Below are positions 68 through 17,906 of a DNA stretch of 32,000 nucleotides, in pieces (the first letter of the stretch is position 1; each line of letters opens with the position of its first letter). The DNA lies in assembly GCA_000025185.1 (NCBI GenBank), contig CP001848.1, forward strand, positions 1,410,001-1,442,000, given 5' to 3'. The notes beneath the pieces are model-generated. The model saw only the letters and a program-made list of their open reading frames with translations. It ran no database searches and was not told where the DNA came from. The translations under genes and the position numbers were made by a program. Origin of the DNA: Pirellula staleyi DSM 6068 (GTDB lineage: Bacteria; Planctomycetota; Planctomycetia; Pirellulales; Pirellulaceae).

Positions 68-1780
68 ATGTCCCAGCCAGCTTCGCCGGCGACTGAAATT
101 CCGGTGGAGCTGTTTCGCCAGATTCTGATTTGGCCGTTGCTGATTCATGCCCCTCATGGCGAATCAGCAATGGAATTAATGGATCTTGTAACGGACGAGC
201 TAGAGCGTCACTCGTGGCATTGGAATGATCGATCCGCAGGCCAAAGTGCTTCGCCGCTGAAGGGGCTTCCTTGGTATCAGGACGATCATGACTATTCGGA
301 GATCGTTTACTTCCACTCCTACGTGCGCGACTTTCTCTATGGAGGCGATGGAACACCGGCTAGCGAGCGACCACTTCGCGTCCTTCGTCGTACCGACATT
401 GCTTCACTCCTGTTAAAGGTTGATGAAGGTCGCGAATATCGGCTGAAGGTCGAACGTGTCGAAGCCTATCTGTTCGATTCAGGCATTCTGCAAGTCGTGG
501 TAGAAGTTGCCGCCCCGCAATTGGTATCCAAGTCGCCGACCGATAGTGAGCAGTTGCGGCCATTCATGCTCAGCGATGCACTCGATCTACAGAATGTGCT
601 GCGCATGGCTTTTCCGCGCCGCTGGAAGCCGAAAACTGGCATACCTTCGGAAACTCCACACCGAGCTTGTTGGCTCAACTCCGAGGGAAGTGAAATCGCC
701 GGGAGTGTTCAGGACTTTCTTAACCAGGAAGACTTTACTCGGATCGTGCGCGAGCAGGCCGAACTGCCGGCCGCCAAACACTGGCAGTATCTCGTCCAAC
801 CCCTGCCACTCTTTGAGCGACGGGTTTGCACTGGATTGTCGGTCAAGCAAATTGAAGACCAGCGTTTACCTTCGATGTCGTACATCGCTGTCCCTGATCC
901 GCGTTTGATTTCCGACGGCGACTTTGAGCGAATCGCCTTCTTCGACAGCGCCGGTCAGTCTTCGGTAGGTTCCTATTCCGATGAATTTCTAGTCGGTTGG
1001 GAAAAGGATCATGCTTACGACCGCTTTTGGCAACGACTCCCCAGCGAAGGCGGTCCTGAAGTTGCCCTGCATAACCAAATGATGCGAACTCGTTGGCTCT
1101 GCAGCGGCTATGGTTTTGCGGTGGTGGGTGCCAGCGGCGACAAGTTCTTCACTACTCAGATTGCAGCCAACTTTCGCCATCACTATTTTCGCATGGGGCT
1201 GATCGCCCATTTTCATCGTGCCAAGCTAATCTCACTTCGTGACCAACTTGCTGAAGCGACAAAACAGGTAGGTGAGAACTTCCGCAATCGCGTGATGGAG
1301 ATCCAGCGAAGCGCTACCATCTTTCGCGCCCGATTCTGGTTTCATGAGGTATCCACACAGCTTCAAGGTCGTGAGATTTTCACGTGGTGGTCCAATCGAC
1401 TCGGCAATCCATCGCTATTTGAGCATGTGATTTCCGACATCGAAGCTGCTGAGTCGCAAGTTCGAACCGAATTTGAAGCAGAAGAATCTCAAGACATTAA
1501 CCTCATCACACGCGTGGGTGGTGCGATTGGTATTCTGAGTATTGTACTCTCAATTGTAGCGCTAATCATTTCGCTGCTTGCACTGGAAGCCATTTCGCCA
1601 CTTAAGCAGTTTGCGATCATGCCAGCCAATCCATGGGACTGGACAGTTGCCAACCTCTGGCTTGGCCGTATCGCCTCGATCGCGTGCCCCCTATCAATTG
1701 TGAGCCTTTGGATTCTATTGGTCGTCTATGGTGGGCTTCGATATTACAAGAGCCATCGTCGTACTCGACGCTTGAGGTAG
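68..1780 (+). CDS. Membrane protein with CorA-like topology (large soluble N-terminal region, two C-terminal TM helices); candidate effector of the adjacent Cas10-like/RAMP module
   Basis: 570-aa ORF from ATG 68. It lies on the same strand as the next gene with a 29-nt gap. C-terminal hydrophobic helices GGAIGILSIVLSIVALIISLLAL and IASIACPLSIVSLWILLVVYGGL are followed by the basic tail KSHRRTRRLR. No GMN motif was seen. The functional label is inferred from topology and gene context only. Confidence 0.7.
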   Translation: MSQPASPATEIPVELFRQILIWPLLIHAPHGESAMELMDLVTDELERHSWHWNDRSAGQSASPLKGLPWYQDDHDYSEIVYFHSYVRDFLYGGDGTPASERPLRVLRRTDIASLLLKVDEGREYRLKVERVEAYLFDSGILQVVVEVAAPQLVSKSPTDSEQLRPFMLSDALDLQNVLRMAFPRRWKPKTGIPSETPHRACWLNSEGSEIAGSVQDFLNQEDFTRIVREQAELPAAKHWQYLVQPLPLFERRVCTGLSVKQIEDQRLPSMSYIAVPDPRLISDGDFERIAFFDSAGQSSVGSYSDEFLVGWEKDHAYDRFWQRLPSEGGPEVALHNQMMRTRWLCSGYGFAVVGASGDKFFTTQIAANFRHHYFRMGLIAHFHRAKLISLRDQLAEATKQVGENFRNRVMEIQRSATIFRARFWFHEVSTQLQGREIFTWWSNRLGNPSLFEHVISDIEAAESQVRTEFEAEESQDINLITRVGGAIGILSIVLSIVALIISLLALEAISPLKQFAIMPANPWDWTVANLWLGRIASIACPLSIVSLWILLVVYGGLRYYKSHRRTRRLR

Positions 1781-1809
1781 TTTCACCCTCCATCAAACAC
1801 ATTTACTGA

Positions 1810-3309
1810 ATGACGGTGTTTGTGATGCCAAGCTTTCTGCTAAGACTAGAAGCCGTCAACTTCAGCGAGTCCTGCTACGACACTTGCGACATTAGCACAA
1901 TTCGCGGCGGCTCGATGATGTTGTCGAATGCTCATGAGCTAGCTCGCGTCGTTCTGCCGCAGGAAATCCAGCACGAGCCGACAAGTTTCGGGGCTTCTCA
2001 TGCGATTTGGCAGTTCGAAGCTGCTGATGCAAATGCTGCAGAGAAAGTGCGCAACGATACTCTCCACGCACTAGCAAAACACAAACAGCTCCGACATGCG
2101 ACATTTGTTTGTGCGGTTGTCGCTAACGACGATGGTAGTGCCGATGCTTTACATCGATTGCGCATGCACAACCATTGGCGTCAGTATCAAGAGCCAACCG
2201 TTGTCCCTCCCGATCTACCCGATGCAAAAAGGCAAGGCAAGCGAATTTGCGAACTTGACCATGTACGTCCCGCCACGATGGAGATTCGAAAGGGAAACGA
2301 TAGCTATTGGGTCAGTACTAGCACGTACGATCGGCGTGTTTATGGCCGGAAGCAAAAGCGGATGTTCTACAAAGAACTCTGTGGGAGCGATCTCGCGGTT
2401 GTCCACGATTTGAGCGACCTCACGTCGCATCTTGAGTCGTCGCAGCATCGCCTCCATGGCAAGATGGCATTGATCTATATCGACGGGAATCAGCAGAGTG
2501 AGATGGCTGCTGATCTCAGCCTTGACCGGTTAAGCAAGTTTCGCCAATACGTTCGTGAGCAACATCGCCGGTTTCTTACTACCTTGCTTGAAGAGATTGT
2601 GCAGTTGATGCCCGCTCAGGGAAGCTCAAATGAATGGTTTCACTGGGACTCTGAGCAAAATGAACTTCAGGTTCGATTGGAAACGCTCCTTTGGGGCGGC
2701 GATGATATCGTCTTGGTAGTTCCCGCTTGGAAGGGATGGTATGTCGCGAGGAAATTCTACGAAGCAGCGCAAGGTTGGGAGTTTGGCGGCCAGAAGTTCA
2801 CTCATGCAACGGGATTAATCTACTGCAGCCACAAAGCACCCATCCAAGATATGCGGCGATATGCAGAAGACCTTGTTGTGCAGTGCAAGAAGACCAAGAA
2901 CAGCGAAGGCAACTATCAAGACTTAATGGGTTATGAGGTGCTGGAATCCATCGACGTAATTTCCAGTGACCTCGACCGTTGGCGGTCGGCCAGACTGGGA
3001 GAGTCAGAGAAGTCCGGGGCCGAAGCAATCGCCAGTGCATTGTTATTGAGCCCCGCTCAGATGGACGGCATAGAATCGATGATCCGGTCGATTCGAGTTG
3101 GCGTTGACGATCCTGACTCAATTCTGTCGCGTCGGCAAATCGAGAGGCGGGCGAGGAGAATGCAACACTCCATGATTGGCGATGAGCAATTTGATAGTGA
3201 CGTTACCAACTATTTTGCCGGTTCAGAGTTTGAGAAGATTGGTTTAGGCCCGCATTCACTGCGTGCCAAACTGTTCCACCTCACCGCAATGTGGGACTAC
3301 CTTACATGA
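1810..3309 (+). CDS. Minimal Cas10-like palm-domain nucleotide cyclase/polymerase (mCpol-like), GGDD intact, no HD domain
   Basis: 499-aa ORF. Motifs appear in Cas10 order. ISTIRGGSMMLSNA resembles the LRGRSxxL / LWAGSYLLS motif. KMALIYIDGNQQSEM is a candidate first metal-binding Asp strand. LLWGGDDIVLVVPAWKG carries GGDD at nt 2695-2706. THATGLIYCSHKAPIQDMRRYAEDLVVQCK resembles the Cas10 SaGi..h.k.P.......A...l..aK segment. The stop overlaps the next gene's start (ATGA at 3306-3309). Confidence 0.75.
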   Translation: MTVFVMPSFLLRLEAVNFSESCYDTCDISTIRGGSMMLSNAHELARVVLPQEIQHEPTSFGASHAIWQFEAADANAAEKVRNDTLHALAKHKQLRHATFVCAVVANDDGSADALHRLRMHNHWRQYQEPTVVPPDLPDAKRQGKRICELDHVRPATMEIRKGNDSYWVSTSTYDRRVYGRKQKRMFYKELCGSDLAVVHDLSDLTSHLESSQHRLHGKMALIYIDGNQQSEMAADLSLDRLSKFRQYVREQHRRFLTTLLEEIVQLMPAQGSSNEWFHWDSEQNELQVRLETLLWGGDDIVLVVPAWKGWYVARKFYEAAQGWEFGGQKFTHATGLIYCSHKAPIQDMRRYAEDLVVQCKKTKNSEGNYQDLMGYEVLESIDVISSDLDRWRSARLGESEKSGAEAIASALLLSPAQMDGIESMIRSIRVGVDDPDSILSRRQIERRARRMQHSMIGDEQFDSDVTNYFAGSEFEKIGLGPHSLRAKLFHLTAMWDYLT

Positions 3310-5291
3310 TTCATGTCGAATTGGAGATCAAGCTCACCCTGGTTGGCCCAGTGTTGACACAGGCAACCTCGGCAGGTCGACTTGGCCTCGATGCTGTGAT
3401 GGCACGCACTTCAGCAGGACATCCGTTCTTGCCCTACTCCCTAGTTCGTGGAAAGTTGCGTCAAGCTCTCGAAGAGGTTTCAAGCCCTCTTCAGAGCGAA
3501 GACCAAAGGAACGTTGAGCAGCTGTTGCCGATCTGGTTTGGTCCGAGATCTTCCTCAAAAGAAGCGGAGCAGGAGAGAGGTGCCTTATGCTTCTCTGATT
3601 TTATCTGCCCTGAGCCCAAAGATGATCTCGCTACACAGACGCGAATTCGTATCGATCGCGATACAGGTGCAGCAGAAGACAAGATGATGATGGTGTTCGA
3701 CTCACCATTTAAAGTTGGCGAAGAGGCTCCGTTTATAGGGAGAATTTGGTGCATTTGCGGGTCAGTGGGGCAGGCAGAATCCACGATCAAGTATGTGCTA
3801 GCTGGTCTCCGCTGGGTTCGTCAATTCGGAGCTGAAAAGACCATTGGTTTTGGATGCGTTTCGAATGTAGATCTACTTAAGGCAACCGTTACGGACCTTG
3901 CTCCACACTCGCAAGCAACCAGAAACACCATCACCCAAAAACTAAGCAACTTGCTAGCTAAGACGGGTTCGAAAGTAATCCACAGAAGCCGCAAACCGAA
4001 CGCTCCAGAAGATGGAGGTCACGGGACTCGCTTTCTGCTTCGAATTCAGCCGCAAGGCCCCATTTGTATTGGAGGACGACGTCGCAACGCCAATGTGTTT
4101 GAGTCAGAGGAGGTGATTCCAGGAGGTGTTCTGGTAGGAACGCTCGCCACGATGTGGCGGCAGGCAAACAACAAGCCTCCATCAGATTTTGTTGTCCAGC
4201 CTAGCGGTGGAAAATGGGATACTCTTGCAGAGCACTTTGAGAGGCTGGTGTTTTCTCATGCATTTCCGAGCAAGAGAGGATCGGGAATCAGGCCCTGTGC
4301 AATTCCTATGTCGCTAGTGTCAGCTGAACCACGCCATGGTGACATACCAGATTCACTTTTCGACGTTGCGCTCTGTAGTCGCCCGCGTCTGATTCCTGCT
4401 ATCGGCAGCAACCTGTTACGCCCACCCGTCTTTCAGTCCGATTGGAAGTCGCATGTTGTTGGTTCGAAAGCGAAAGCGATCTTTGGCTGGTCAAGTGTGC
4501 CAAGAGAGCTTCGTGTCAGAACGGCAATCGATATCGAAACTTTGCGTGCTTCCGATGAACAGCTTTTCGCCTATGAGATGGTGGTGCCTGACCAACATGA
4601 ATGGCTGGGCTATTTAGATCTGGAAAATGTCCCGCCTCAGGACCGAGCTATGTTGCTTGAGGAACTTGAATCGTTATTATCGGCCGGTCTTTGCCCAATT
4701 GGCAAGACAAAGATCGATGCCAGCATAAGCATCGAGCCCTATACTGCCGCCACGCCGATGTTGCCGTCGAGTTCCACACCGCTTCCCGGGAATGTTTGGG
4801 TGATTACGCTCCAGACACCAGCAATTCTGTGTGCGTCGACGGATTTAGAAGATCCGACAGGCGAGCAGTTGTTCGATGGCTACAGGAAAGCTTGGAAGAC
4901 ACTTTCGGATGAAAGTCTCGAACTTCAACGATTCTTTGCACGCCAATCTCTATCAGCACCTAGATTCGCCGGTCGATTGCCAACAAATTCCAGCGGACAG
5001 TTCTATCCCTTCGTCGTTACCGATGCTGGAAGCACCTTTGTATTGCGTGCAACAGGCGACGTTAGAGATGCACAACTCAAAGTCAAAGAATGGCTTAATC
5101 TGGGGATGCCTCTTTGCGACTATCTGTTGGGTGGCAGCCAAGCTGACAAAGCTGACAGAGATTGGCAGCGATCCCCCTATCTAAATCGCCATGGATATGG
5201 CGAAGTTGCCGTTAATCAACCCTGGTTGTTAGGTCACGATTCCAGCGTGGTGATGCCACAGCGTCTAGACGATGAGGAAGGTACGATATGA
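3306..5291 (+). CDS. RAMP-superfamily fusion protein (N-terminal Cas7-like unit plus a second RAMP unit, possibly Cas5/Csm4-Cmr3-like)
   Basis: The ORF track gives 3291-5291 with a GTG start. ATG 3306 forms an ATGA overlap with the upstream stop, so it is preferred. Unit 1 motifs are PFLPYSLVRGKLRQALEE, LPIWFGP, RIRIDRDTGAAEDKMM and the glycine loop FGAEKTIGFGCV. Unit 2 motifs are FLLRIQPQGPICIGG, VIPGGVLVGTLATMW and GLCPIGKTKIDA. The stop overlaps the next start (ATGA at 5288-5291). Confidence 0.7.
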   Translation: MIHVELEIKLTLVGPVLTQATSAGRLGLDAVMARTSAGHPFLPYSLVRGKLRQALEEVSSPLQSEDQRNVEQLLPIWFGPRSSSKEAEQERGALCFSDFICPEPKDDLATQTRIRIDRDTGAAEDKMMMVFDSPFKVGEEAPFIGRIWCICGSVGQAESTIKYVLAGLRWVRQFGAEKTIGFGCVSNVDLLKATVTDLAPHSQATRNTITQKLSNLLAKTGSKVIHRSRKPNAPEDGGHGTRFLLRIQPQGPICIGGRRRNANVFESEEVIPGGVLVGTLATMWRQANNKPPSDFVVQPSGGKWDTLAEHFERLVFSHAFPSKRGSGIRPCAIPMSLVSAEPRHGDIPDSLFDVALCSRPRLIPAIGSNLLRPPVFQSDWKSHVVGSKAKAIFGWSSVPRELRVRTAIDIETLRASDEQLFAYEMVVPDQHEWLGYLDLENVPPQDRAMLLEELESLLSAGLCPIGKTKIDASISIEPYTAATPMLPSSSTPLPGNVWVITLQTPAILCASTDLEDPTGEQLFDGYRKAWKTLSDESLELQRFFARQSLSAPRFAGRLPTNSSGQFYPFVVTDAGSTFVLRATGDVRDAQLKVKEWLNLGMPLCDYLLGGSQADKADRDWQRSPYLNRHGYGEVAVNQPWLLGHDSSVVMPQRLDDEEGTI

Positions 5292-8200
5292 CCACTCAAA
5301 TAGCGACTCGGTATCAGCTGAAGTCACGCTGGAAGATCACCGGAACCCTAACCACAACTAGTCCGATGCATATCGGGAGTGGTGATTCGACCACCCATCC
5401 GCAGCTTGTAAACGAAGCTTCTGAAACCGATAGCACTATCGCCCACAAATCAATAGAAGTGGCTGCAATTGTTCGTGACTTCCAAGGTAAGCCCATCATT
5501 CCGGGCTCAGCGCTAAAAGGTGTGCTTCGGAGTTGGGCTGAGAAACGGTACACCAACTATCGTCCCCAGATCAGCAAGATCTTTGGAGACCTTGACTGCA
5601 GTACTCCCCAAGCTCGCTCGGGTCGTGCGGTATTCAGAAATGCGATACTGATCCCACCTAAGGACGACTTAATAACTAGATACAAAAACTTTGTCCCCTA
5701 TTGGCGAACTGATAAGTTAGCTGGAATACTCAGTCATGTTTGCATTGATCGCCACAACGGTACTGCGTCCGCCAATAAACTATTCTTCGAGGAGTTCTTG
5801 CCCGAGGGGATTTCCTTTAAGGTTGAGATTTTTGCCGAGCAGCTTGATGAATCGGACGTTCAATTATTGCTAAGCGTTCTAGTTCATGGCGTTTCCGATG
5901 ACAGTGAACCAATACAATTTGGTTCGAACACGGCCAATGGCTGGGGGCAAGTATCGTGGAGCGATGTGTTCGTATCTCGCAATATCGATAACTCACATGT
6001 TGAATTGGATCTAAACACGCTTTCATTTAGACAGCGGTGTAACAATCTAACAATCGATGCGTTGCCGGCGCCACCTCCACCCGATCACATTAAGACTATT
6101 CCACTCTTGTTTCAGTGCCGGGGCCCTTTTCTGGTCAACGACGGGTCGCGAGTGAAGAGGAAGGAAATGAGTGAGGCCGAGAAAGAGCGGCACCGGAACT
6201 TTACCCCTCTGAGACGCGCCGACGGCAGCGTATGGTTGCCAGCGTCGTCGTTTCGAGGAGTTCTGCGTAGCCGAGCAGAATTCATTCTTCGCTCGCTCGA
6301 TCCTAGCGCAACAGGCGATCCCAACAAGCCACTCAGCAAAGACAACCCCATTGAAAAGATCTTCGGCATGACCGGCCACGCCAGCCGTCTGCAAATCGAC
6401 GAGTTTAGTAGTTCAACCACTGACCCTAAGCTGCGGCATCAAGACTTTGTTGCGATTGACCGATTCACCGGAGGTGCTGCAGACACCGCAAAGTTCGACG
6501 CCGAGTATGCTGACCACCCCACCTTTTCGAGCCGACTCCGCCTCAACACCCATGGGCTTTCCGAATCAGATATTGCGATTCTTGCTGCTACGTTGCGGGA
6601 CTTGACGAGAGGAGACCTGCAGTTTGGCTTTGGAGTCGCGAAGGGTTATGGCGAATTAGTGGGCAATTGGACAACTGACGCAGAGGCCTGGGCACGAAAA
6701 CAACTGCAGCATCTTCCAGTCGCAAAACGCTCGGAGATTCCAAATAGCTCAGGCCCTAGCCCCTCGCCTACTAAGGCAAATGTCATCGAGGGCAAACTTA
6801 TATTTCAAAAGATCAGGGGTGAGGACAAGCCCGTACGTCGCCTAGTGTATCGAAACAAAAAAAACGAATGGACAACCCAGGCTCCCACACCGATCGTGTT
6901 CGCCTCACTGCCGCAGTCACTGCAAACCAACACGAGTCCAGAAATAGAAGTCGATTTCGAATGGGCGAGTCCAAACAAGCCCACAAGAGTTCGAGAGCGC
7001 GGCACGCACCTACGAATCGCGGCAAGGCATAATTTTGCTGCAAACCAAGCAAATGACTATTTTGCTCACGCTTACTACTTCCTGCGACACGAAGAAAGAA
7101 GAAACCTAGGTGGGAATGGCAAGCCATCGGCCTGGCCAAATGATTTGGCAGACCGAAATCCCTATGGACATGAGCGTTATCAAGAGGGGTGTTATTCAGG
7201 AACAATAAGTGTTCGATTGACGACGAAGACGCCTCTCCTACTGTGCGACGATCTCACTCGCCGTGAAACGCAACCTGGGCACTATGAGTACGATATGAGG
7301 GGCGATGATGAAGGGAACCCGATTCTTCACTCATCGTCAGTTCGAGGAATGCTACGCAGTGCCTATGAGGCAATCACGAACTCCCGAATGGGGGTGTTTA
7401 CAGGACACGATGACCGACTTGGGTTGCGAATGCAGACCCAAGAGGGGCTCGCACTAGTACCCTGTCGGATCGAGAGCGGAAAAGTTGTCCTCCTTCCAGG
7501 TACGTCCCAGATTACTGTTTCTAGGCCGAGTGGTCCAATGTATGCCGCGTGGCTACCGGCATATCCTGAAACGGGAGCATTAAGGCTCAGCAATACAGGG
7601 AATCTACCCCAACACCGTCAACACGTGAGCTGTTGGATTGAGCTTTGGGAGCGAACTCCATGGGTGGAAGTTCGCAACGATATAAACCATGGTCGGTTTG
7701 CTGAAGATAAAAAGTTTAGCTATTGGAAGGTTGTGGCGATCGCACCGCACGGACAACATCTCAGCAAACCCTCTAGCTCAAGCGAATGCCCTCGAATTGA
7801 TGGCACAAATCATCACACTCCTAAAGGCGAACCGATTCGTTTTATTGAGAATGGCTATGTCTGCTCTACCAACTACAACTTTGATAAGAAACATGACGAA
7901 AGAGTCTTCTTTGTTGACAATAGTAGTGAGTTAACACCGATTCCCCTATCAGAATCGCTTGTTCAGCAGTGGGGGAACCTAATTCGTAATTATCGACTGA
8001 ACGAAGATCTAGCTAAGGATAAAAAACGGCCTGGGGCCCTCACGAAGGCTGGTTGGTCTCGGCATATGAAAGATGATCGAGAGCTTACCTTAGCCGATGG
8101 CAGCTTGGCCTACGCGCGACTCGATGCGAAAGGTAGTGTCATCGAGCTCTTCCCGGTGATGATTGCGCGAAAACTGTATCCACGCAGCCCTTGGTGTTCG

Positions 8201-9106
8201 ACTCCGCGTTCACTTCTGCCGGCTACGAGTCGTTCTATGCTTTCGCCTGCAGATCGGCTGTTTGGTTGGGTCAATCAGGAATGCGTGGATAAAGACAGCC
8301 CTGCTTACCGTTCGCAATTGAGAGTGGGAGTTGTTGAATGCAAAACAAATGAGGCAATTAGATCATTCAATGTGCCGATGGTGGTTCCAATACTATCTCA
8401 ACCCAAACCTTCCCAGGGAAGGTTCTACCTAGGCGACAAGACAGGGCGCACACAGCCCCCCGGAGGATCGAAAGAAGATCGTGGATATTCAGGGACCAAT
8501 CGAATTCGTGGTCCTAAGGTTTACCCTCACCATGCGGCGTTTTCGCTAGATAGAGTTGGAAAGTCAGCTGGGCAAGCTGGAAATCAGAATCGTTCCATTA
8601 CTGGCTGTGTTAGAGAGGGTGTCGAGTTCAAATTTAATCTACATGTTCTTAATCTGTCTCGACTGGAAGTCTCTGCCCTTTTTTGGTTGCTAACCTTGCC
8701 GCCGAGTCACTATCTGCGACTCGGCCTGGGAAAGCCGCTTGGCTTCGGAAGTGTGAGCTGTGAGATCGTTAACACTGAAACTCGCATCTCCGATGGAAGC
8801 GACTGGATTGCTTCGCTTAAGGAGTGGGATGCATTACCGCCTGGAATTGATGCTACCGCAATTCAGTCGATGGCTGCAGAGTATGAATCCCAGATTGGAG
8901 AAGTCAATCCCACTCTCATGCAATCGTTTTTGCAAATAGCAAAAGGTTTTGGATGTGTTGAAACTGGATATCCACCAAGTCCCGACTCAAGAACGCTAGG
9001 TGGCGAGCATTTTAAGTGGTTTGCAGCGAATGAACGCAATAGAGCCGGAGCGAGGTCACTTCCTGACCCATCGGATAATGATCCGTTATTGCCAAAGATG
9101 CTATAG
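5288..9106 (+). CDS. Giant RAMP fusion with three Cas7 (Csm3/Cmr4)-like domains, the third carrying large insertions
   Basis: 1272-aa ORF. Unit 1: SPMHIGSGD, IPGSALKGVLRSWAEK (nt 5498-5533), ISKIFGD, ICIDRHNGTASANKLF, FGSNTANGWGQV. Unit 2: LPASSFRGVLRSRAEF (nt 6236-6274), IEKIFGMTG, AIDRFTGGAADTAKF, LQFGFGVAKGYGEL. Unit 3: YFAHAYYFLRHE (resembles the PYNFVPL-type start of type III-D RAMPs), YSGTISVRLTTKTPLLL, ILHSSSVRGMLRSAYEAI (nt 7322-7363), ADRLFGWVNQ, LRLGLGKPLGFGSV. Confidence 0.85.
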   Translation: MTTQIATRYQLKSRWKITGTLTTTSPMHIGSGDSTTHPQLVNEASETDSTIAHKSIEVAAIVRDFQGKPIIPGSALKGVLRSWAEKRYTNYRPQISKIFGDLDCSTPQARSGRAVFRNAILIPPKDDLITRYKNFVPYWRTDKLAGILSHVCIDRHNGTASANKLFFEEFLPEGISFKVEIFAEQLDESDVQLLLSVLVHGVSDDSEPIQFGSNTANGWGQVSWSDVFVSRNIDNSHVELDLNTLSFRQRCNNLTIDALPAPPPPDHIKTIPLLFQCRGPFLVNDGSRVKRKEMSEAEKERHRNFTPLRRADGSVWLPASSFRGVLRSRAEFILRSLDPSATGDPNKPLSKDNPIEKIFGMTGHASRLQIDEFSSSTTDPKLRHQDFVAIDRFTGGAADTAKFDAEYADHPTFSSRLRLNTHGLSESDIAILAATLRDLTRGDLQFGFGVAKGYGELVGNWTTDAEAWARKQLQHLPVAKRSEIPNSSGPSPSPTKANVIEGKLIFQKIRGEDKPVRRLVYRNKKNEWTTQAPTPIVFASLPQSLQTNTSPEIEVDFEWASPNKPTRVRERGTHLRIAARHNFAANQANDYFAHAYYFLRHEERRNLGGNGKPSAWPNDLADRNPYGHERYQEGCYSGTISVRLTTKTPLLLCDDLTRRETQPGHYEYDMRGDDEGNPILHSSSVRGMLRSAYEAITNSRMGVFTGHDDRLGLRMQTQEGLALVPCRIESGKVVLLPGTSQITVSRPSGPMYAAWLPAYPETGALRLSNTGNLPQHRQHVSCWIELWERTPWVEVRNDINHGRFAEDKKFSYWKVVAIAPHGQHLSKPSSSSECPRIDGTNHHTPKGEPIRFIENGYVCSTNYNFDKKHDERVFFVDNSSELTPIPLSESLVQQWGNLIRNYRLNEDLAKDKKRPGALTKAGWSRHMKDDRELTLADGSLAYARLDAKGSVIELFPVMIARKLYPRSPWCSTPRSLLPATSRSMLSPADRLFGWVNQECVDKDSPAYRSQLRVGVVECKTNEAIRSFNVPMVVPILSQPKPSQGRFYLGDKTGRTQPPGGSKEDRGYSGTNRIRGPKVYPHHAAFSLDRVGKSAGQAGNQNRSITGCVREGVEFKFNLHVLNLSRLEVSALFWLLTLPPSHYLRLGLGKPLGFGSVSCEIVNTETRISDGSDWIASLKEWDALPPGIDATAIQSMAAEYESQIGEVNPTLMQSFLQIAKGFGCVETGYPPSPDSRTLGGEHFKWFAANERNRAGARSLPDPSDNDPLLPKML

Positions 9107-9210
9107 CGTACCGCTATTTGGATATTAGCGATCGAATAGGCCACTATAGTCCCGGTAATGATGTTTTGCTATTGAAGCTGTCTCGATGACTTGTTTCCGT
9201 CGTTATGTCA

Positions 9211-9238
9211 TGAATGAATGAATGAATGAATGAATGAA
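9211..9238. repeat. Tetranucleotide microsatellite (TGAA)x7
   Basis: Direct reading: tgaatgaatgaatgaatgaatgaatgaa, about 100 nt after the RAMP operon stop. It places TGA stops in all three + frames. Confidence 0.95.
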
Positions 9239-10036
9239 AAGGTCAAACTGAACTCACTGACTGGCAGATGAGAGTGTCAGGCACTACGTATCTAATTGAT
9301 TCAACTTTGCTCTGGATCTCGAGCATAGTCTTGAGTATCTCGCCAGTTCATGCTGGTTCTCCCTGAATAGGGTGTCACGTACCATTACGTAACGGAAGTG
9401 TTACGAAGGTATCTTCAGTCCTACAATCGTGCTTTACTGGTAGCAAGTTCCAGATTCGCAGCAGAATTAGATAGTAACTCCCACATTCCGAAGGTGTATC
9501 GATGTCAAAGGCGCTTCACCTGTACCAAAAGGAGTGAGAGCCAATATCCGGTAGTGTAGGCCATCGGTTAGTTACAGTTACGGTGTTTTGGTTGCGGCAA
9601 ACCGTACAGTGTAATTTCTGCTCGGGACTTATCACCAGAGTACCGCTCGAAAAATGGGGTGGGGGGATGGTTCAATCCTGGAAGGCTTGGGTCCCTCGGG
9701 TCCTTTGTGCATTCAAAATTGAGAGTACAAGTGCCATATCGGACGGTGTTTGCTATCGCTCAATCCACATCACTGCATCGCTGATGCCCTCGACGTGCAG
9801 TGAATCGCTACTCGGTTGGCACAAAATGAGTAGAGTTTCGGGCCAACTACCGCCAAAATCTTGCGTCGCAATGCTTGGGCTGGTCACTTCCCATTGATTT
9901 GGAGCGTCGTCCTGCACAACCGTTCGGCAATTGCATCGGACTCTTGTCTTGTCGTCGCAAAATCAAGCCATTGCCCTTTGGGATGGCGAGTTGTTGTTCT
10001 GCTTTGAAGGGAGCGCATTCGACTTTCTGCCTGCTC

Positions 10037-10116
10037 GCGACCAACGAGTTGTTGACTTTTCTAGATTTTTCGTGAAACCCGTAGATGGTGGAAGTAAGAG
10101 CGGTTTGGGATAATGT
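10037..10116 (+). repeat. Diverged direct repeat, copy 1 (core GAAACCCGTAGATG at 10074-10087)
   Basis: GCGACCAAC...TTCTAGATTTTTCGTGAAACCCGTAGATGGTGGA...GCGGTTTGGG aligns with copy 2 over about 80-95 nt with indels. The two copies share an exact 14-mer. Confidence 0.6.
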
Positions 10117-10396
10117 GCCCCCAACCAACTCCAGCAATCTGCAGACGCAGGGCAGGTTCGACGACTGTTCAACTTGGCTTGAGGGGCTCTTTCAGTACAG
10201 TTGCCGTAAGTTATGACCTACATGTGACCGAGGTTGCGGCGATTCAACGGGCGAGTTCCCTTTGCGTAGAGTGCTGCTCACTCGAATTTTCGTGCTCTTG
10301 GACTGATCACTAGTAGTTATCTCTGCGCATGACGAGACTTACCTGCGGGTCGTTAGGTGAAGTGAATGCCGAAACCGATGTCGCTCGAAGTCCATA

Positions 10397-10490
10397 GCGC
10401 CAACAATCTACGACTAAGCAGGGTTTCTCGAAGATTTTGGAAACCCGTAGATGATGAGTATTCGGTGTGGTGTAGCCGATTTGGTTGTCA
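10397..10490 (+). repeat. Diverged direct repeat, copy 2 (core GAAACCCGTAGATG at 10440-10453; local stem GGGTTTC 10421-10427 / GAAACCC 10440-10446)
   Basis: GCGCCAAC...GGGTTTCTCGAAGATTTTGGAAACCCGTAGATGATGAG...GCCGATTTGG lies 366 nt downstream of copy 1. Weaker partial matches to the TCGAA(G)ATTTT(C)G part occur near 10281-10296 and 10681-10698. Confidence 0.6.
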
Positions 10491-10517
10491 CCGTGATCAG
10501 CTGTCACCTGGAAATCT

Positions 10518-10937
10518 CTATCGGCCCAAGCGAGAAGCTAGGACCAGTGCCAGGACAGCATTTCGGCAGTCTTCGGAGAGCTTGTCCCAGGATTCAATGA
10601 TCTGGAGGAGTCTCGGCTCGAAGGAAGGTACGTCGACCCTTGGGGAGGGGAGTGAAATTGTTGGTTGAAGGAGGCGACTATCTTTTGAAGATTTACTGTT
10701 ACTGTCTAATAACGGATTACTTTCGGTTCCAATTCCCTTGTTTTGATGATTTCTAGTGCGCGCGTCGGATTCTGCGTCGGTTGATTCGCAAAATGCCTTA
10801 GTTCCCTTGGAATATGGAGGGTGTTTGTCTCCTACCGGGGGAGCTCCTGTTTTTTCAAGAAAGTGCCGCGTTTCGCGGCATTTTTTGCGCGCCGACCGAA
10901 TTCTCCTCACGGTCCGGCAATGCTCATTCGCGCTCAA
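10518..10937 (-). CDS. Hypothetical protein (weak call)
   Basis: 139-aa ORF. Only the C-terminal part looks protein-like (PRLLQIIESWDKLSEDCRNAVLALVLA). The terminator-like hairpin at 10864-10886 lies inside the ORF, which argues against the full length. Confidence 0.25.
   Translation of the reverse strand: MSANEHCRTVRRIRSARKKCRETRHFLEKTGAPPVGDKHPPYSKGTKAFCESTDAESDARTRNHQNKGIGTESNPLLDSNSKSSKDSRLLQPTISLPSPRVDVPSFEPRLLQIIESWDKLSEDCRNAVLALVLASRLGR
10864..10886 (+). terminator. Intrinsic (rho-independent) terminator, possibly bidirectional
   Basis: TGCCGCG (10864-10870), TTT loop, CGCGGCA (10874-10880), then TTTTTT (10881-10886). An A-rich run (aagaaag) precedes the stem, so the minus strand also sees a weaker T-tract. 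Confidence 0.55.
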
Positions 10938-11398
10938 AAATGCTCAGTTGCGCTCGGTTAGAGCGCACAGAAACGCGCACAGCCTTTTTCCCCCTCTTTC
11001 GGCCCCCTTCCGGATTTCTTCGAGCGGGGACTCACCAATTCGCGGGCCGCCTCGGTCCAAGCCTCTCTGCTTCTCGCTTCTGGTCGACGGTGGGGCCTTC
11101 GAAGCCCTCTGCAGCATTTCGTGACGACAGTTTGCCTCGTTAGAGCTGAAAACTGGTCCATCGCGGTCCAGGACACACAACTCCAGTCGATCCCAGAACG
11201 ACTTGGCGATTCTTTGTCGGAAGTCGTTTGTGTGACCACTTCTACTGCAATTCGGGGGGCGATGAGCATTTATTTTTGAACGGCATTTGACATATTGAGA
11301 TTCATCGCTCTTATAAGTGTTATGTTGTTCATGTGAGAGATCATCTGATTGAAAAAAATTGTTAGTAACCCAGTTGAGTATCAATAGGAGAATAAAAG

Positions 11399-11629
11399 AT
11401 GACTAATAGCTATCAAAATGATGTCAAAAACGAAAGACGCTATGTCACTCTTAGAGAAGCATCGGAGCTGTATCCACTGTCTGAGATGACATTTCGCCGC
11501 TTAGCTTCGGCTGGGAAAATTACGCTGTACCGGCCGACTCCGGGCAAATTGTTCCTGAGTGTCGACGAGATCGAGTCGCACTTTCGCACTTCTGCAGGAG
11601 CGCGAGGGAAAAAATGCCCCGCCAGTTAA
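11399..11629 (+). CDS. Excisionase/AlpA-like helix-turn-helix DNA-binding protein (MerR-type HTH_17-like)
   Basis: 76-aa ORF. RYVTLREASELYPLSEMTFRRLASAGKITLYRPTPGKLFLSVDEIESHF matches the short excisionase-family HTH pattern. AGGAG lies 9 nt upstream of the ATG, in an AT-rich upstream region (TTGACA at 11287, TATAAG at 11312). Confidence 0.7.
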   Translation: MTNSYQNDVKNERRYVTLREASELYPLSEMTFRRLASAGKITLYRPTPGKLFLSVDEIESHFRTSAGARGKKCPAS

Positions 11630-11850
11630 TGCTACTGACTGCGAGGGACCTCAACTCGCACTCTTGGCACGAGCCTAGAAACGGATTTTGCAATGAATGC
11701 GCACGAAAAAAGCCGCCCGAGACTCACAATCTCGAACGGCCAGCAGATGAAGCGCGAAGTTGAGAATGACAAAATCGCTTCAGTCTGTCAACTGTTTCGC
11801 AGCGATAATCTGGCAGTGTTCCATCCCTTCGATCTGCGGAGGGCCTTCTA

Positions 11851-12843
11851 ATGGAATACCCACGACGTCTATCGTTTTTCTCCAATCGATTTGCGGACGT
11901 TTTTCATAGCTCGGGGGCAATCGACGAGCTTGGAAGCACGGCAGCGCTGCTGCTCTGGGTTGTATCCAGTGCCGAGGACAAGACTAGGTATCACGGACCA
12001 GTCAAGTTCTGGGACAGCGACCTTAAACAGAAGGTAGGGTTGTCGAGCCAGCGCCGGTTCGCGGCTGTCCGAAAGCTGTTGGTTGATGCGGGGTGGTTGG
12101 TTTACTACCGATCCACACAACGAGCGATCGGCTCGTATTGGGTGGTGATACCCCAACGCTTCCAAGAGCCGATCGATTTTGAACCCACAGCAGAAACTAT
12201 CGAAGCGAATGGCGCGGAAAACTGCGCCAATGAATTCGAGAATGGCGCACAAAAACGCGCCAATGGTGCGAATGGCGCACTGAATGGCGCACTGAATGGC
12301 GCAGAAAAGTGCGCCCCTTCTATTCCTACTCCTACTCCTAATACCTCTCTCTCTAAAAAAGAGAGTGAGAGAGAGAGGGAAGCGCAACCATCTAAAGCGC
12401 ATCCCCCAGCAGAGGCGATCGACTTAGAGCTTGCCCAGCAATTCTTCAGCGACCTCCGGAAGCTCGATGAGCATCGAGCAGAGCCTGACTTCGAGACTTG
12501 GGCTCATGAGTTTGAGCAACTACGCAAGGCCGGTAAGCCGATCGCGCAGATCCGCGAAGTGATGGACTTCGTTGCAGGCCATGTGAAGCACTGGCGAACT
12601 CGAATCGAGAGCCCGCAATCACTTCGAGAAAACTGGGACAAGCTTGCCCTCGAGTGCGGAGCAGCCAAGAAGGCAAGGGCGGCAACCTGCTCTGAGATTC
12701 CCGATCTCACCGACGACGACGTAATCAAACCACCGCAACATCGCGGCCGCCGACTCTACGGCAATCGCCAGTTGCCCAGCATGGCCGGTGCTAATTACGA
12801 CCCCGACGCACACCTGAAGGATCCCGATCATGGCACCTTCTAG
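11851..12843 (+). CDS. Hypothetical mobile-element protein with internal NGA-type tandem repeat; function unknown (replication/DNA-binding role is speculation)
   Basis: 330-aa ORF with ordinary composition. The central tract ANGAENCANEFENGAQKRANGANGALNGALNGAEKCA is encoded by repeated AATGGCGCA units. The stop TAG (12841-12843) coincides with the IS target site. Confidence 0.65.
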   Translation: MEYPRRLSFFSNRFADVFHSSGAIDELGSTAALLLWVVSSAEDKTRYHGPVKFWDSDLKQKVGLSSQRRFAAVRKLLVDAGWLVYYRSTQRAIGSYWVVIPQRFQEPIDFEPTAETIEANGAENCANEFENGAQKRANGANGALNGALNGAEKCAPSIPTPTPNTSLSKKESEREREAQPSKAHPPAEAIDLELAQQFFSDLRKLDEHRAEPDFETWAHEFEQLRKAGKPIAQIREVMDFVAGHVKHWRTRIESPQSLRENWDKLALECGAAKKARAATCSEIPDLTDDDVIKPPQHRGRRLYGNRQLPSMAGANYDPDAHLKDPDHGTF

Positions 12844-13704
12844 AGCCTGTTATTGACTTATCTGCTTGCAATTGCTGTAGTTAGGGGATGAAACACACGA
12901 CAGGGAAGTCGTATCCCAGCGACGTAACGGATGCGGAGTGGGAATTCCTGCTCCCCTACTTAAGCCTCATGCGCGAGGATGTGTCGCAGCGTGCCTATTC
13001 ACTGCGCGACCAGTTTAACGCCATGCGCTACGTGGTGAAAACAGGAATCCAGTGGGACTTCCTGCCGCATGAAATGCCTCCGTGGCGGGCCGTCTATCAA
13101 CAAATGCGACGCTGGTTCGAAGCGGGAGTCTTTGAGGAAATTGCGCAAGACCTCAGGCTGATGGTGCGTCTTTTGGAAGGACGTGACGAACAGCCAACCG
13201 CTGTGATCATGGATGCTCGAACGCTGCAATCGACTCCTGAAAGTGGAGGCCGCGCGGGATACGACGGCGCGAAGAAAAAGAAGGGTTCGAAGGCCAATAT
13301 TGCCGTCGATACACTGGGAAATCTGCTGGCGGTTTACATCACTGCAGCCAATGAGCAAGACCGCGACCAAGTCGCCATCCTCTCGCAGAGAGTGCAAGAG
13401 GTGACGGGCAGCAACGTGGAGATAGCGTACGTCGATCAAGGCTATACGGGCGCCGCAGCAGCCGAGCAGGCTGAAGCATCCTCGATAAGATTACAAGTTA
13501 TAAAACATACCGAGACCAAGCGAGGCTTTGTCCTATTGCCACGCCGCTGGGTTGTTGAGCGCACCTTTGGTTGGCTGAGTCGCTTCCGCCGTCTCGCGCG
13601 TGATTATGAGAGACTCACCGTCACGCTCACCAACTTCCACTGGCTCGCCTTCCTCACCATACTCCTCGCAAAAATCTACAGACAAAGTCAATAACTGGCT
13701 CTAG
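12841..13704 (+). mobile_element. IS5-family insertion sequence (single-ORF DDE transposase) with terminal inverted repeats at a CTAG target
   Basis: The left end TAGAGCCTGTTATTGACTT (12841-12859) matches the reverse complement of the right end AAGTCAATAACTGGCTCTA (13685-13703) at 18 of 19 positions. The flanks read ..cttCTAG[..]CTAGcga, consistent with either a TA or a CTAG target duplication. The exact IS ends are therefore ambiguous by 2 nt. Confidence 0.85.
12888..13694 (+). CDS. IS5-family DDE transposase
   Basis: 268-aa ORF. The N-terminal region YPSDVTDAEWEFLLPYL...GIQWDFLPHEMPPWRAVYQQMRRWFEAGVFEEI is typical of IS4/IS5 transposase N-domains. DDE-region motifs are AVIMDARTLQS, ANIAVDTLGNLL, AYVDQGYTG and VVERTFGWLSRFRRLARDYERL. 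Confidence 0.9.
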   Translation: MKHTTGKSYPSDVTDAEWEFLLPYLSLMREDVSQRAYSLRDQFNAMRYVVKTGIQWDFLPHEMPPWRAVYQQMRRWFEAGVFEEIAQDLRLMVRLLEGRDEQPTAVIMDARTLQSTPESGGRAGYDGAKKKKGSKANIAVDTLGNLLAVYITAANEQDRDQVAILSQRVQEVTGSNVEIAYVDQGYTGAAAAEQAEASSIRLQVIKHTETKRGFVLLPRRWVVERTFGWLSRFRRLARDYERLTVTLTNFHWLAFLTILLAKIYRQSQ

Positions 13705-14170
13705 CGAGCACAGGACCAGCACCGGACCAGGTGCGGACCAGTCCGGTCCGATAGTCCGGTGGCCCAGGCCAAACCAACCGCCCGAGAAGCACCGGCTCGA
13801 GTTCGTCGCAGTCTTCTCCACCGAGGGTGCAGGCGACCGTGAGATGGCGATGATGCAACTAAAGCGATTCCTAAAGGCCGCACTTCGCCAGTATCGCTTC
13901 CGATGTGTCTCCGTTGAGGAATGGTGACGTCCAGGCCACTACAACGCGTCCTGGCGCAAATAAAGCGATTCTAGAGGCATCTCCCACGCACGGAAGTGAG
14001 CACGAGACATGACCTCCACCCATCGCCAGCCAAGCCGTCGCACAAGCTGGAACGAATCACCAAGCACGCCCATCGCTGAAACGATGCGACGGGTGTGCGT
14101 CCCCTTAAGCTCCCCCGCACTGAGTTGGCTTTGCCAATGAGGTGCTGGGGGGCCGGGGGGCAGGTTGCGC

Positions 14171-14314
14171 ATGCATCGCTGTCGTCCCGGTGATCGCGTC
14201 GTGGTGAGCAAGGTCAAGGTTCGCCCCCTCGTCCGAATCGGAAGCGACAAGCTGTACTACGTGGTGCTGACGGCGGGACGAAGAACGTCCATCAAGACCC
14301 GCGAGACGAACTAG
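14171..14314 (+). CDS. Small hypothetical protein (47 aa), below the ORF-track length cutoff
   Basis: Translated manually as MHRCRPGDRVVVSKVKVRPLVRIGSDKLYYVVLTAGRRTSIKTRETN. The composition is protein-like, with no other support. Confidence 0.3.
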   Translation: MHRCRPGDRVVVSKVKVRPLVRIGSDKLYYVVLTAGRRTSIKTRETN

Positions 14315-14604
14315 TCGGCGGAACAATGTTTTTCTCTTCTCTCCGCAGCGGGGCTCAGCGTTCGAGTGCCTTCCCTAAACAGCCATGAGAAGGCTTGCAA
14401 ATAACCGTCGTTCGATGACCTGGAGTAAGGAAGAATAGGGCCGATTCTGCATATTCCGAATTATGCAGAACTCTAGATAGTCCAGCCCAGTTTGCATCTT
14501 TCTCGTCTTTTGTTGACACCCCCTCCCGAAATAGGCAGAATGCAACCCGAAAGAAATATGCAGACTTCCGTATAGTAACTGTTCGCTGCTGTAAGAGGCA
14601 CTCG

Positions 14605-15294
14605 ATGGGCTACCTCGTCACGGCTCACGTCCTTCGCGAAAAGCCGGACCTCTCGCGGCTCGGCGAATTGCCGAAATCTGTGGGCTTTCGGGTCTACTTG
14701 CACCGCGCCGCGAACCTTTACCTGTTGGACACTTTTCGTCCCGCAAAGGTGCCGCAGTATCCATTTCAGACGTTGCTGCCAGCTGCCGATATTCCGCTGA
14801 AATTGCCTCCTGGCTTGGAAAGTCTCGAACGGATTTACTCGCGGTTCGGCCCGCTGAATCTCGCGAATGGCTTTAAGAAATCGTACATCAACGCGGCTCT
14901 GCTGCTCAATCGGCTCCTTCAATCGCCCGTTTTCTCGTTCGTGTCGAACGACGACGATCTCGATTTCACGTGTTCCGCGGTCGGCGGATCTCTCAACCGA
15001 CTGAAATGTCGGTGCGGCGACCTCGTGATCTCCTTCGACGGAAAAAGAGCCCAAATTGCGCCGCTCGTGCCAGACGAAGAAGACGAGGACCTTCTCACTG
15101 ATACCGCTGCTTTGAAATCCGCGATGCCCGAAGTGGAAGTTCTTGAGCGTCAGACTCCGTGGGACACGCAATTGCATTGCATCGCCATGGAAGAGCTGCA
15201 AGCGTTTGCTGGAATCAAAGAAATGATCTTGGGGTTGGGGAGCTTTGATCCGCCCGAAGACGAGTCCGAGTGGAGACTCGTCGCCTCGCGGTGA
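14605..15294 (+). CDS. Cassette ORF, hypothetical protein
   Basis: 229-aa ORF with ordinary composition. The longer antisense ORF (14473-15357) is R/E-rich shadow. The stop TGA at 15292-15294 lies 5 nt before attC1. Confidence 0.65.
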   Translation: MGYLVTAHVLREKPDLSRLGELPKSVGFRVYLHRAANLYLLDTFRPAKVPQYPFQTLLPAADIPLKLPPGLESLERIYSRFGPLNLANGFKKSYINAALLLNRLLQSPVFSFVSNDDDLDFTCSAVGGSLNRLKCRCGDLVISFDGKRAQIAPLVPDEEDEDLLTDTAALKSAMPEVEVLERQTPWDTQLHCIAMEELQAFAGIKEMILGLGSFDPPEDESEWRLVASR

Positions 15295-15298
15295 GTGC

Positions 15299-15388
15299 AC
15301 CGAACAATAACTTGCACCTGACCGCCGTTCGGCTGTGGTTTCACAATGGCTCATCACCAGCGGCGGCCGGTGATGCAGAACGTTATTT
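15299..15388 (+). repeat. attC-like site 1
   Basis: ACCGAAC...TTGCACCTGACCGCCG...CGGCGGCCGGTGATGCAGAACGTTATTT. The 3' arm is near-identical to attC2 and attC4. Confidence 0.7.
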
Positions 15389-15401
15389 GGCTAACAGCAA
15401 T

Positions 15402-16013
15402 ATGAAGCAGCGCCGTCTCGACAGGATTGCCAACGAATTGCTCGGTCCATGCCTGATTCCTAAACGATTTGTCGATTTCACGGGCGGGTTCTGTCGTGCG
15501 GTTCCCTCTGGTGCCATACACACAATTCTTATTGGCCATGATGTCCGCAGTTCTCACAGCTTCCAGATCCTTTGCGGATTAAATGCTACGGTGCTCTGCG
15601 ACGCACAAGCACCACAGCGTGCCGGTGTTTTCGGAGGACGACAACTGACAAGAGATGGTTGGAGTGCCAATTCAGGGCGGTGGCCCTGTCACGACGAGGA
15701 TACCACACGCGCTAGCTTTGTTGTAATTCAATCGCTCATTGATGACTTGGTGGAACCATGGTTTCAAACTTGCGCCTCTCTCGCATCTGTCGCGGACGCC
15801 ATGTCGGTCAATCAACATGGACTCCTTAAAGCGAGGCTCTATCATACCGCCGGTTGTACAGACGATGCAGTTGCTGCGGCTTATCAGTATCTTGAACGTC
15901 TCAGAAGCCCAGCCTCATGGGATGACCCGAAGTGGTTGATCACGGAGATCGAAACGGCAACAATCTTCGTGCGAGAAATCGAATTTTCAAGTCAAGGTGA
16001 GCGGGCCAAATAA
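15402..16013 (+). CDS. Cassette ORF, hypothetical protein (DUF4304-like pattern is a guess)
   Basis: The ORF track gives 15270-16013, but its first 44 codons translate attC1. The first ATG after the site is 15402 (MKQRRLDRIANELLGP...). The stop TAA at 16011-16013 lies inside the attC2 5' end. Confidence 0.65.
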   Translation: MKQRRLDRIANELLGPCLIPKRFVDFTGGFCRAVPSGAIHTILIGHDVRSSHSFQILCGLNATVLCDAQAPQRAGVFGGRQLTRDGWSANSGRWPCHDEDTTRASFVVIQSLIDDLVEPWFQTCASLASVADAMSVNQHGLLKARLYHTAGCTDDAVAAAYQYLERLRSPASWDDPKWLITEIETATIFVREIEFSSQGERAK

Positions 16014-16097
16014 CAGCCGCATGCACCGGACAGCCGTTCGGGTTTGGTTTCACAATGGCACATCACCAGCGGCGGCCGGTGATGCAGAACGTTAGGC
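16008..16097 (+). repeat. attC-like site 2
   Basis: AAATAAC...GCATGCACCGGACAGCCG...CGGCGGCCGGTGATGCAGAACGTTAGGC. The core is GTTAGGC at 16091-16097. Confidence 0.8.
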
Positions 16098-16098
16098 A

Positions 16099-17116: not shown

Positions 17117-17138
17117 TTGAATCGCCACAAAACCAGGC

Positions 17139-17217
17139 CATGAACCGGAGCGGCCGACAACGTGGGTTTTGATATCATGCCTTTTTTGCGGCGGCCCGGT
17201 TACGGCTGTCGTTAGGC
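17139..17217 (+). repeat. attC-like site 3 (79-bp class)
   Basis: CATGAACCGGAGCGGCCGACAACGTGGGTTTTGATATCATGCCTTTTTTGCGGCGGCCCGGTTACGGCTGTCGTTAGGC. It aligns along its whole length with attC8. Confidence 0.75.
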
Positions 17218-17222
17218 GACAC

Positions 17223-17519: not shown

Positions 17520-17568
17520 ATGTTGGTCCGTTTGCCAATAAAACCATGATGCTGAGTGAGGCTCGAAC

Positions 17569-17886: not shown

Positions 17887-17906
17887 ACGCTGATCGATAA
17901 GTTTAC

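Follow-up and report, generated by a model that had tools for sequence, protein, structure and literature searches.

We analyzed 32 kb of the genome of Pirellula staleyi DSM 6068 (CP001848; this whole stretch is called the window below), which start 67 nt 5' of a corA gene and most probably encode the effector and signalling part of a type III CRISPR-Cas system. The cassette in question (68-9106) consists of four co-directional genes on the + strand, corA, cas10, cas7-5 and cas7x3, and the encoded proteins exactly match Psta_1139 to Psta_1142. corA and cas10 are separated by 29 nt, the two following junctions are ATGA stop/start overlaps (3306-3309 and 5288-5291), and all four open reading frames (ORFs) are intact and translationally coupled. 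The original prediction for this locus had described such a tightly packed unit with this gap and these overlaps, and the ORF coordinates bear it out, including the lengths of the first, second and fourth protein. The 666 aa given for the third protein were a minor error: counted from the ATG at 3306, as in the deposited Psta_1141 protein, it has 661 aa. A length of 666 aa needs the upstream GTG at 3291 and is therefore inconsistent with the ATGA overlap cited for the same gene. A literature search for the Psta_113x/114x locus tags and the ADB1581x/1582x accessions found no mention of these genes.

Subtype III-D2 was defined and solved from Gammaproteobacteria bacterium HyVt-522 (PDB 9WXH, 9WXI and 9WXJ; Mitsuda et al., 2026, PMC13294483). 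The locus order in that organism is Cas6, toxin-antitoxin (TA) module, CorA, Cas10, Cas7-5 and Cas7x3; cognate target RNA triggers Cas10 to join ATP to S-adenosylmethionine (SAM), resulting in SAM-AMP and SAM-AMP2, and growth arrest requires CorA and the GGDE motif of Cas10 (PMC13294483). The order corA-cas10-cas7-5-cas7x3 is identical in P. staleyi and HyVt-522, and the four-gene cassette recurs in the related loci L001, L005 and L009.

The first protein matches the PADLOC profile of CRISPR-associated CorA proteins, PDLC01043, over its full length (E = 8e-132), and two hydrophobic segments (Table 1) confirm the pair of C-terminal transmembrane (TM) helices that had been proposed for a CorA-like partner. 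An AlphaFold2 model (predicted local distance difference test, pLDDT, 89.8) contains helices at residues 447-516 and 525-569, and overall a soluble sensor domain at the N-terminus is followed by a long stalk helix and the TM pair at the C-terminus. The top 11 PDB matches found for this model with Foldseek are all CorA Mg channels, but the matches are weak (E ~8e-3). The GMN motif of the CorA Mg-transporter superfamily is absent from the Psta_1139 sequence, and the Pfam CorA family, which matches some distant homologues only, does not match Psta_1139 itself.

The second protein was identified as Cas10 by its similarity to the III-D2 Cas10 chain 9wxh_B (phmmer, E = 2.4e-41), to the PADLOC Cas10 profile (E = 1.5e-25) and to Pfam Cas10-Cmr2_palm2, in agreement with the Cas10-like palm protein with a GGDD motif that had been proposed. 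The AlphaFold2 model (pLDDT 92.7) shows Palm1, Palm2 and a helical C-terminal domain; all Foldseek matches of the model are Cas10 proteins, the top one being the III-Dv Cas10 8s9t_C (E = 1e-16). There is no HD domain, since the H-x-D motif was not found in the first 120 aa. The original prediction had also presented this Cas10 as minimal, which we rejected as a special feature: its length is ordinary for the family, 120 listed homologues spanning 459-553 aa.

To compare individual residues, the aligned parts of the 9WXH chains were rebuilt from the phmmer output and then aligned with 120 Cas10 and 39 Cas7-5 homologues. The SAM contacts E8, N11, S29, S123 and Q186 of HyVt-522 Cas10 are kept in P. 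staleyi as E14, N17, S35, S63 and Q125, and the metal ligands D286 and G287 as D225 and G226. Further kept are the GGDD motif at residues 296-299, K360 (K420 in HyVt-522) and E379 (E436). In HyVt-522, the double mutation D347A/E348A abolishes defence (PMC13294483).

Pfam RAMPs matched two stretches in the third protein and three in the fourth (E = 7.5e-52), confirming the double and triple RAMP proteins of the original prediction; the five units are four Cas7 domains and one Cas5 domain. The third protein comprises Cas7.1 (aa ~5-206) and Cas5 with a lid (aa ~245-638). It matches 9wxh_C with both domains covered (E = 1e-96) and the PADLOC III-D Csm4/Cas5 profile PDLC01408 over its full length (E = 2.3e-64). 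The predicted target-RNA cleavage residue of Cas7.1 is kept, position 29 being Asp in 37 of the 39 Cas7-5 homologues. HyVt-522 cuts the target RNA once, at Cas7.1 D29, and D29A abolishes cleavage (PMC13294483).

The fourth protein contains Cas7.2 (aa ~13-230), Cas7.3 (~280-470) and Cas7.4 with an insertion and a C-terminal extension (~618-1269), and it matches 9wxh_D with E = 1.2e-57. Its last domain matches TIGR03986 (E = 1.2e-89, 302 bits against a cutoff of 161), and aa 618-1269 match the Cas7-insertion chain of III-Dv, 8s9t_E, with E = 8.6e-113. This similarity to a protein that is separate in III-Dv fits the series III-D1, III-Dv, III-D2, III-E that has been proposed (PMC13294483). Cas7.2 has Glu57 at the place of Gln52 of HyVt-522, a position occupied by E, Q or D within the clade of close relatives defined below. 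The catalytic position of Cas7.3 is non-acidic, and its zinc-finger cysteines are missing. An assignment of the triple fusion to III-E (gRAMP) was rejected: the NCBIfam gRAMP score is 143.6, with a cutoff of 700, and both Cas10 and Cas5 are present.

Because the 9WXH chains are matched and the gene order is identical, we conclude with a probability of about 0.85 that the cassette encodes the effector and signalling part of a III-D2 CRISPR-Cas system with the workings published for HyVt-522. It combines a Cas7x3, a Cas7-5 with lid, an HD-less Cas10 with a GGDx motif and an adjacent CorA-family effector. The searches with Pfam, NCBIfam and PADLOC profiles and the AlphaFold2 and Foldseek comparisons showed that all four protein assignments of the original prediction were correct. 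Its view that the layout resembles described subtypes without plainly equalling one did not hold, since the cassette equals III-D2 gene for gene; the three chain matches led to the confident assignment to an existing subtype which it had named as part of an outcome that would speak against it.

Since the SAM contacts, the metal ligands, GGDD, K360, E379 and D29 are kept, the same scheme of sensing, synthesis and arrest is expected in P. staleyi, each step being proposed here from homology. By comparison with the HyVt-522 complex, Cas7-5, Cas7x3 and Cas10 would share one CRISPR RNA (crRNA) and together form a compact complex with four Cas7 domains, one Cas5 domain and one Cas10. The conserved residues suggest that a foreign transcript that is complementary, but does not match at its 3' anti-tag, would activate the Palm domains with their GGDD motif, and that Cas10 would then attach a nucleotide derived from a nucleoside triphosphate to the 3'-OH of SAM, giving SAM-AMP or a close analogue. 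Cleavage of the target RNA beside Asp29 of Cas7.1 would switch signalling off. By analogy to HyVt-522 and Bacteroides fragilis, the messenger would bind to the CorA-like protein of the cassette at its cytoplasmic domain, and this protein would compromise the membrane and arrest the growth of the infected cell. The original prediction had arrived at a similar chain, from a fused RAMP sensor through a nucleotide signal of a small Cas10 to a CorA growth-arrest effector, and this agrees with the mechanism shown experimentally for III-D2 (PMC13294483).

Several observations weigh against this reading. A CRISPR array was looked for in the window and not found, and among the window ORFs scanned there was no Cas6. 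The same scan detected no Cas1, Cas2, CARF, SAVED or PIN domain, which bears out the earlier statement that CARF and SAVED proteins are missing from the window. No PIN/VapC domain in the window ORFs also means that the VapBC-like TA module, which is typical of III-D2 loci and required for phage defence in HyVt-522 (PMC13294483), is not visible there. The lid insertion of Cas7-5 that bears W351, a residue required for SAM-AMP2 in HyVt-522 (PMC13294483), is absent in P. staleyi and occurs only in HyVt-522 and one close relative among the sequences aligned, so that a second product of the SAM-AMP2 type is not expected. Finally, the donor-ATP adenine pocket of the SAM-AMP-synthesising Cas10 (F290, F306, D307) is altered in P. 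staleyi at F290 and D307, a point we return to below.

The original prediction had reported no visible array, cas6 or adaptation genes. This holds within the 32 kb, but the window starts 67 nt before corA, relatives have adjoining arrays, and the P. staleyi genome paper lists two CRISPR arrays, so that the absence in the window is no evidence of an array-less system. The survey of homologous loci for co-occurring arrays found them adjoining the cassette in L001, L009 and the further related loci L008 and L010. The 20-repeat array of L009 ends ~100-190 bp before corA, and L001 has one array ~4 kb upstream and a 37-repeat array that begins 169 bp after cas7x3. Repeats ending in ATTGAAAC are seen in L009, L008, L010 and the upstream array of L001, and the downstream L001 array corresponds to ATGGAAAC in reverse complement. 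ATTGAAAC is a typical 8-nt tag. The two flanking arrays of L001 (673-2887 and 15916-18592) are oppositely oriented, with related but distinct 37-nt repeats ending in GGATTGAAAC and GGATGGAAAC.

Two scans of genome contigs were made. A search with an 11-sequence alignment gave 64 pattern matches, none of which was confirmed, and a two-repeat pattern derived from the relatives' repeats (CGAAG...GATTGAAAC) found at least 120 unrelated arrays, none from P. staleyi among the matches listed. P. staleyi was included in the reverse transcriptase (RT) and Cas1 phylogenies of a study on RT-associated CRISPR-Cas systems; P. staleyi does not occur in the supplement of the RT-Cas1 paper. CRISPR RNAs, Cas6 and adaptation functions would have to come from outside the window, most likely from an array just upstream or from one of the two arrays of the genome. 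Cas6 is present in L010, where it has an AF_1859_N domain. In L001 and L005, no Cas6 and no TA module was detected within 10 kb.

The TA module is likewise variable among the relatives. It is present in L008 (HTH_17 and PIN_3) and absent in L001, L005 and L009; in P. staleyi, it could lie upstream of the window. The TA-like pair of L008, HTH_17 and PIN_3/VapC50_C, lies just upstream in the region 5446-8498. At the corA position of the same locus, two ORFs of 305 and 219 aa were found, which may represent a split or frameshifted corA.

The remodelled substrate pocket of the signalling enzyme is the one new point of an otherwise largely ordinary locus. P. staleyi and its 15 closest homologues form a Cas10 clade (the 16 best matches, E <= 1e-97, the next following at 5e-71), which includes each of the four retrieved cassettes whose corA is complete (those of the window, L001, L005 and L009) as well as L008. 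F290 is replaced by Q and D307 by R in 16/16 Cas10 proteins of this clade, and F306 is kept (F244 in P. staleyi). Out of 499 Cas10 columns, seven are fixed in the clade and fixed otherwise in the 104 remaining homologues, and four of these seven contact a ligand or a metal in 9WXH (hypergeometric p = 1.6e-4): L12F in the pocket for the adenine of SAM, F290Q and D307R in the pocket for the donor adenine, and E348D at a metal ligand. A fifth such column, L30 to M, adjoins the contact residue S29. Nearly all substitutions that define this distinct sub-clade sit in the substrate pockets.

In HyVt-522, D307 contacts the N6 amino group of the adenine at 3.6 Å, and D307A abolishes SAM-AMP synthesis (PMC13294483). 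Since both F290 and D307 are exchanged in P. staleyi, the product may not be SAM-AMP. The substitutions would fit a shift in the preferred donor nucleotide, or at the least an altered binding mode, and a different messenger in the P. staleyi system is possible. The best-surviving alternative to the HyVt-522 workings keeps the III-D2 architecture and logic, but proposes that the Pirellula-type clade attaches a nucleotide other than AMP, e.g., GMP, to SAM, and that a co-evolved CorA sensor reads the product. The acceptor would still be SAM, because the equivalents of E8 and Q186 are kept, and the rebuilt donor pocket (F290Q, D307R) is what would lead to the attachment of a non-AMP nucleotide. 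The CorA proteins are split in the same way as the Cas10 clade, with ~17 close homologues (E <= 1e-134) and then a gap to 1e-89. The literature suspects different ligands for different CorA families, and the 2025 classification left unresolved what III-D CorA senses, noting that III-D CorA loci come without known SAM-AMP-cleaving enzymes.

On the other side, this proposal is a deduction from sequence. The Arg might nevertheless stack on the adenine or form a bond with it, ATP might just be bound in another geometry in this clade, and a one-residue indel lies between the DGN loop and F244/R245 in the alignment. We therefore consider a non-AMP nucleotide a tentative alternative that is clearly less likely than SAM-AMP. 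Somewhat more doubtful still is the further-reaching statement that a Pirellula-type sub-clade of III-D2 may have re-tuned its Cas10 for a messenger other than SAM-AMP that is read by its own CorA variant. The likeliest candidate for such a messenger would be SAM joined to another nucleotide, e.g., SAM-GMP.

Table 1. Features of the cassette and of the adjoining region (positions in the window)
Feature	Position	Strand	Description
corA	68-1780	+	Psta_1139, 570 aa; CRISPR-associated CorA-like membrane effector
Two predicted TM helices of CorA, short loop between	1502-1741	+	aa ~479-515 and ~532-558; Kyte-Doolittle 19-residue windows >1.6
cas10	1810-3309	+	Psta_1140, 499 aa; small HD-less Cas10
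Remodelled donor-nucleotide pocket of Cas10	2494-2544	+	Q229 (HyVt-522 F290), S230 (G291), R245 (D307); from the family alignment
GGDD catalytic motif, Cas10 Palm2	2695-2706	+	aa 296-299; equivalent to GGDE 345-348 of HyVt-522
cas7-5	3306-5291	+	Psta_1141, 661 aa; Cas7.1-Cas5 fusion
Asp29 of Cas7.1, predicted target-RNA cleavage residue	3390-3392	+	aligns with D29 of 9wxh_C
cas7x3	5288-9106	+	Psta_1142, 1272 aa; triple Cas7 fusion
2.3-kb stretch directly after cas7x3	9107-11398	.	no credible ORF
Mobile-element remnant, three genes	11399-13694		excisionase-like HTH, replication initiator, IS5 transposase
Example ORFs in 13700-18400	14473-15357	-	
Example ORFs in 13700-18400	14605-15294, 15270-16013, 16099-17172	+	

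Downstream of cas7x3, the stretch without credible ORF contains neither periodic repeats nor an Rfam match, its ORFs have no Pfam match, and it resembles neither the related loci nor any other part of the window; an (ATGA)x7 microsatellite lies at 9210-9238. Three mobile-element genes come after this stretch, so that the cassette abuts a mobile-element remnant. They encode an excisionase-like HTH_17 protein (Psta_1143, 11399-11629), a phage-type replication-initiator O/DnaD-like protein (Psta_1145; phrog_391, E = 1.8e-15) with GAxNGA-type repeats encoded at 12207-12314, and an IS5-family transposase, of which the genome carries at least six near-identical copies. The HTH_17 gene was considered as the III-D2 antitoxin and rejected, having no PIN partner and no similarity to the HTH genes of L008 and L005.

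These surroundings allow the cassette to be read as an orphaned or decaying remnant that lost a downstream array to mobile-element insertion and no longer confers crRNA-guided immunity. The featureless 2.3 kb lie exactly at the position of the 37-repeat array of L001 and are followed by the excisionase-like, replication-initiator and transposase genes, and neither cas6 nor a TA module is found in the window. However, the four genes (9 kb) are intact and translationally coupled with their catalytic residues kept, and a decayed array between 9107 and 11398 was rejected, the best match to the relatives' repeats being 22/37 with no trace of periodic repeats. In addition, the array of L009 sits upstream of corA, a side that lies beyond the window edge here, and two arrays are recorded for the genome. 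It is common for type III effector modules to draw on arrays in trans. We consider the loss of function unlikely, and that a mobile element displaced a former array is speculation.

Very unlikely is a cassette that travels as cargo of an integrated mobile element, serving inter-element conflict with borrowed host crRNAs: mobile-element genes follow immediately downstream, L005 also has an HTH_17 gene after cas7x3 with restriction-modification-type genes nearby, and the guanine-cytosine content is 0.48-0.54 across 1-11 kb as against mostly 0.53-0.60 later in the window, but integrase, att repeats and tRNA were not found in the window, the genes that follow the cassette in L005 show no homology to those in the window, and the cassettes of L001 and L009 lie among ordinary chromosomal genes with their own arrays.

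A search of the window for Rfam families and tRNAs found none. Between 13700 and 18400, ~4.7 kb of overlapping ORFs on both strands have no Pfam, PHROG or PADLOC match. The remaining window contains typical planctomycete genes, such as those for WD40 and HEAT proteins, sulfatases and an extracytoplasmic function (ECF) sigma factor with a FecR-like partner. A tandem repeat, (GATTGGCT)x4.4, is located at 27512-27546, 5' of the genes for the ECF sigma factor and a FecR/LamG anti-sigma-like protein and of a sulfatase operon (together 27655-31801), and is unrelated to the cassette.

The locus itself adds little to what is established, as others have already classified, reconstituted and solved III-D2 with CorA. 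III-D2 has so far been studied only from a metagenome-assembled genome (MAG) expressed in E. coli, and the type strain P. staleyi DSM 6068 offers a cultivable, genetically characterised host. Most loci of the clade are without the TA module that is essential in HyVt-522, which bears on how SAM-nucleotide signals of III-D systems are switched off. If the donor nucleotide has changed, the repertoire of CRISPR second messengers would be widened by a further SAM-nucleotide, and the signature Q229/R245 versus F/D would provide a simple sequence rule to predict the messenger of a locus.

Among known systems, the III-D2 locus of HyVt-522 has CorA, Cas10, Cas7-5 and Cas7x3 in the same order as P. staleyi, with chain matches of E = 2e-41 to 1e-96. 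Both have an HD-less Cas10 with the SAM contacts, the metal ligands and GGDx, both have D29 in Cas7.1, and the catalytic position of Cas7.3 is non-acidic in both. In contrast, the proteins share only ~30-35% identity, and Cas6, the VapBC-like TA module and an array are not visible in the P. staleyi window. The Cas10 of P. staleyi is ~70 aa shorter, without the insert between the Palm1 strands, and differs by F290Q, G291S, D307R and W124H and by GGDD instead of GGDE. Its Cas7-5 lid is without the W351 insertion, its Cas7.3 is without the four-Cys zinc finger, and Cas7.2 has Glu57 versus Gln52.

The III-Dv system of Synechocystis sp. PCC 6803 (8S9T-8S9X) resembles the P. staleyi cassette in other parts. 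The segment 618-1269 of Cas7x3 is closer to the III-Dv Cas7-insertion than to the Cas7x3 of HyVt-522, the two N-terminal Cas7 domains match Cas7-2x, and the III-Dv Cas10 is the best fold match of the Cas10 model. However, Cas7-2x and Cas7-insertion are encoded by separate genes in III-Dv, with Csx19 between them, whereas P. staleyi has one polypeptide and no Csx19. Moreover, the III-Dv Cas7-Cas5 is further fused to Cas11, and Cas7-5 of P. staleyi has no match to that chain at E <= 1e-3. To our knowledge, III-Dv has not been described with a CorA effector. A related system in an Acidobacteriota MAG (GCA_038040455.1; L010, 6038-15790) also has Cas7-2x and Cas7-insertion as separate genes, and a S_4TM membrane protein and a SMODS nucleotidyltransferase are encoded directly upstream of cas10, replacing CorA. 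The effector seems to have been exchanged here within the III-Dv/III-D2 family.

The III-B Cmr system of Bacteroides fragilis with CorA and NrN shares the conjugation of SAM to a nucleotide by Cas10 and a CorA-family membrane effector (Chi et al., 2023, PMC10600005). Its complex is built of separate Cmr subunits, whereas P. staleyi uses fusions, and the CorA proteins of III-B and III-D2 share only ~15% identity. III-B loci encode the SAM-AMP-degrading enzymes NrN, DEDD or lyase, none of which was found in the P. staleyi window. Cas7-11 (gRAMP) of III-E, which acts with Csx29, likewise consists of fused Cas7 domains with an insertion in the last one, and Cas7x3 gives partial matches to it (E ~5e-42 with NCBIfam and 1e-17 to 5e-23 with PDB chains). 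In contrast to the P. staleyi cassette, III-E lacks Cas10, Cas5 and CorA, and its signalling runs through a protease.

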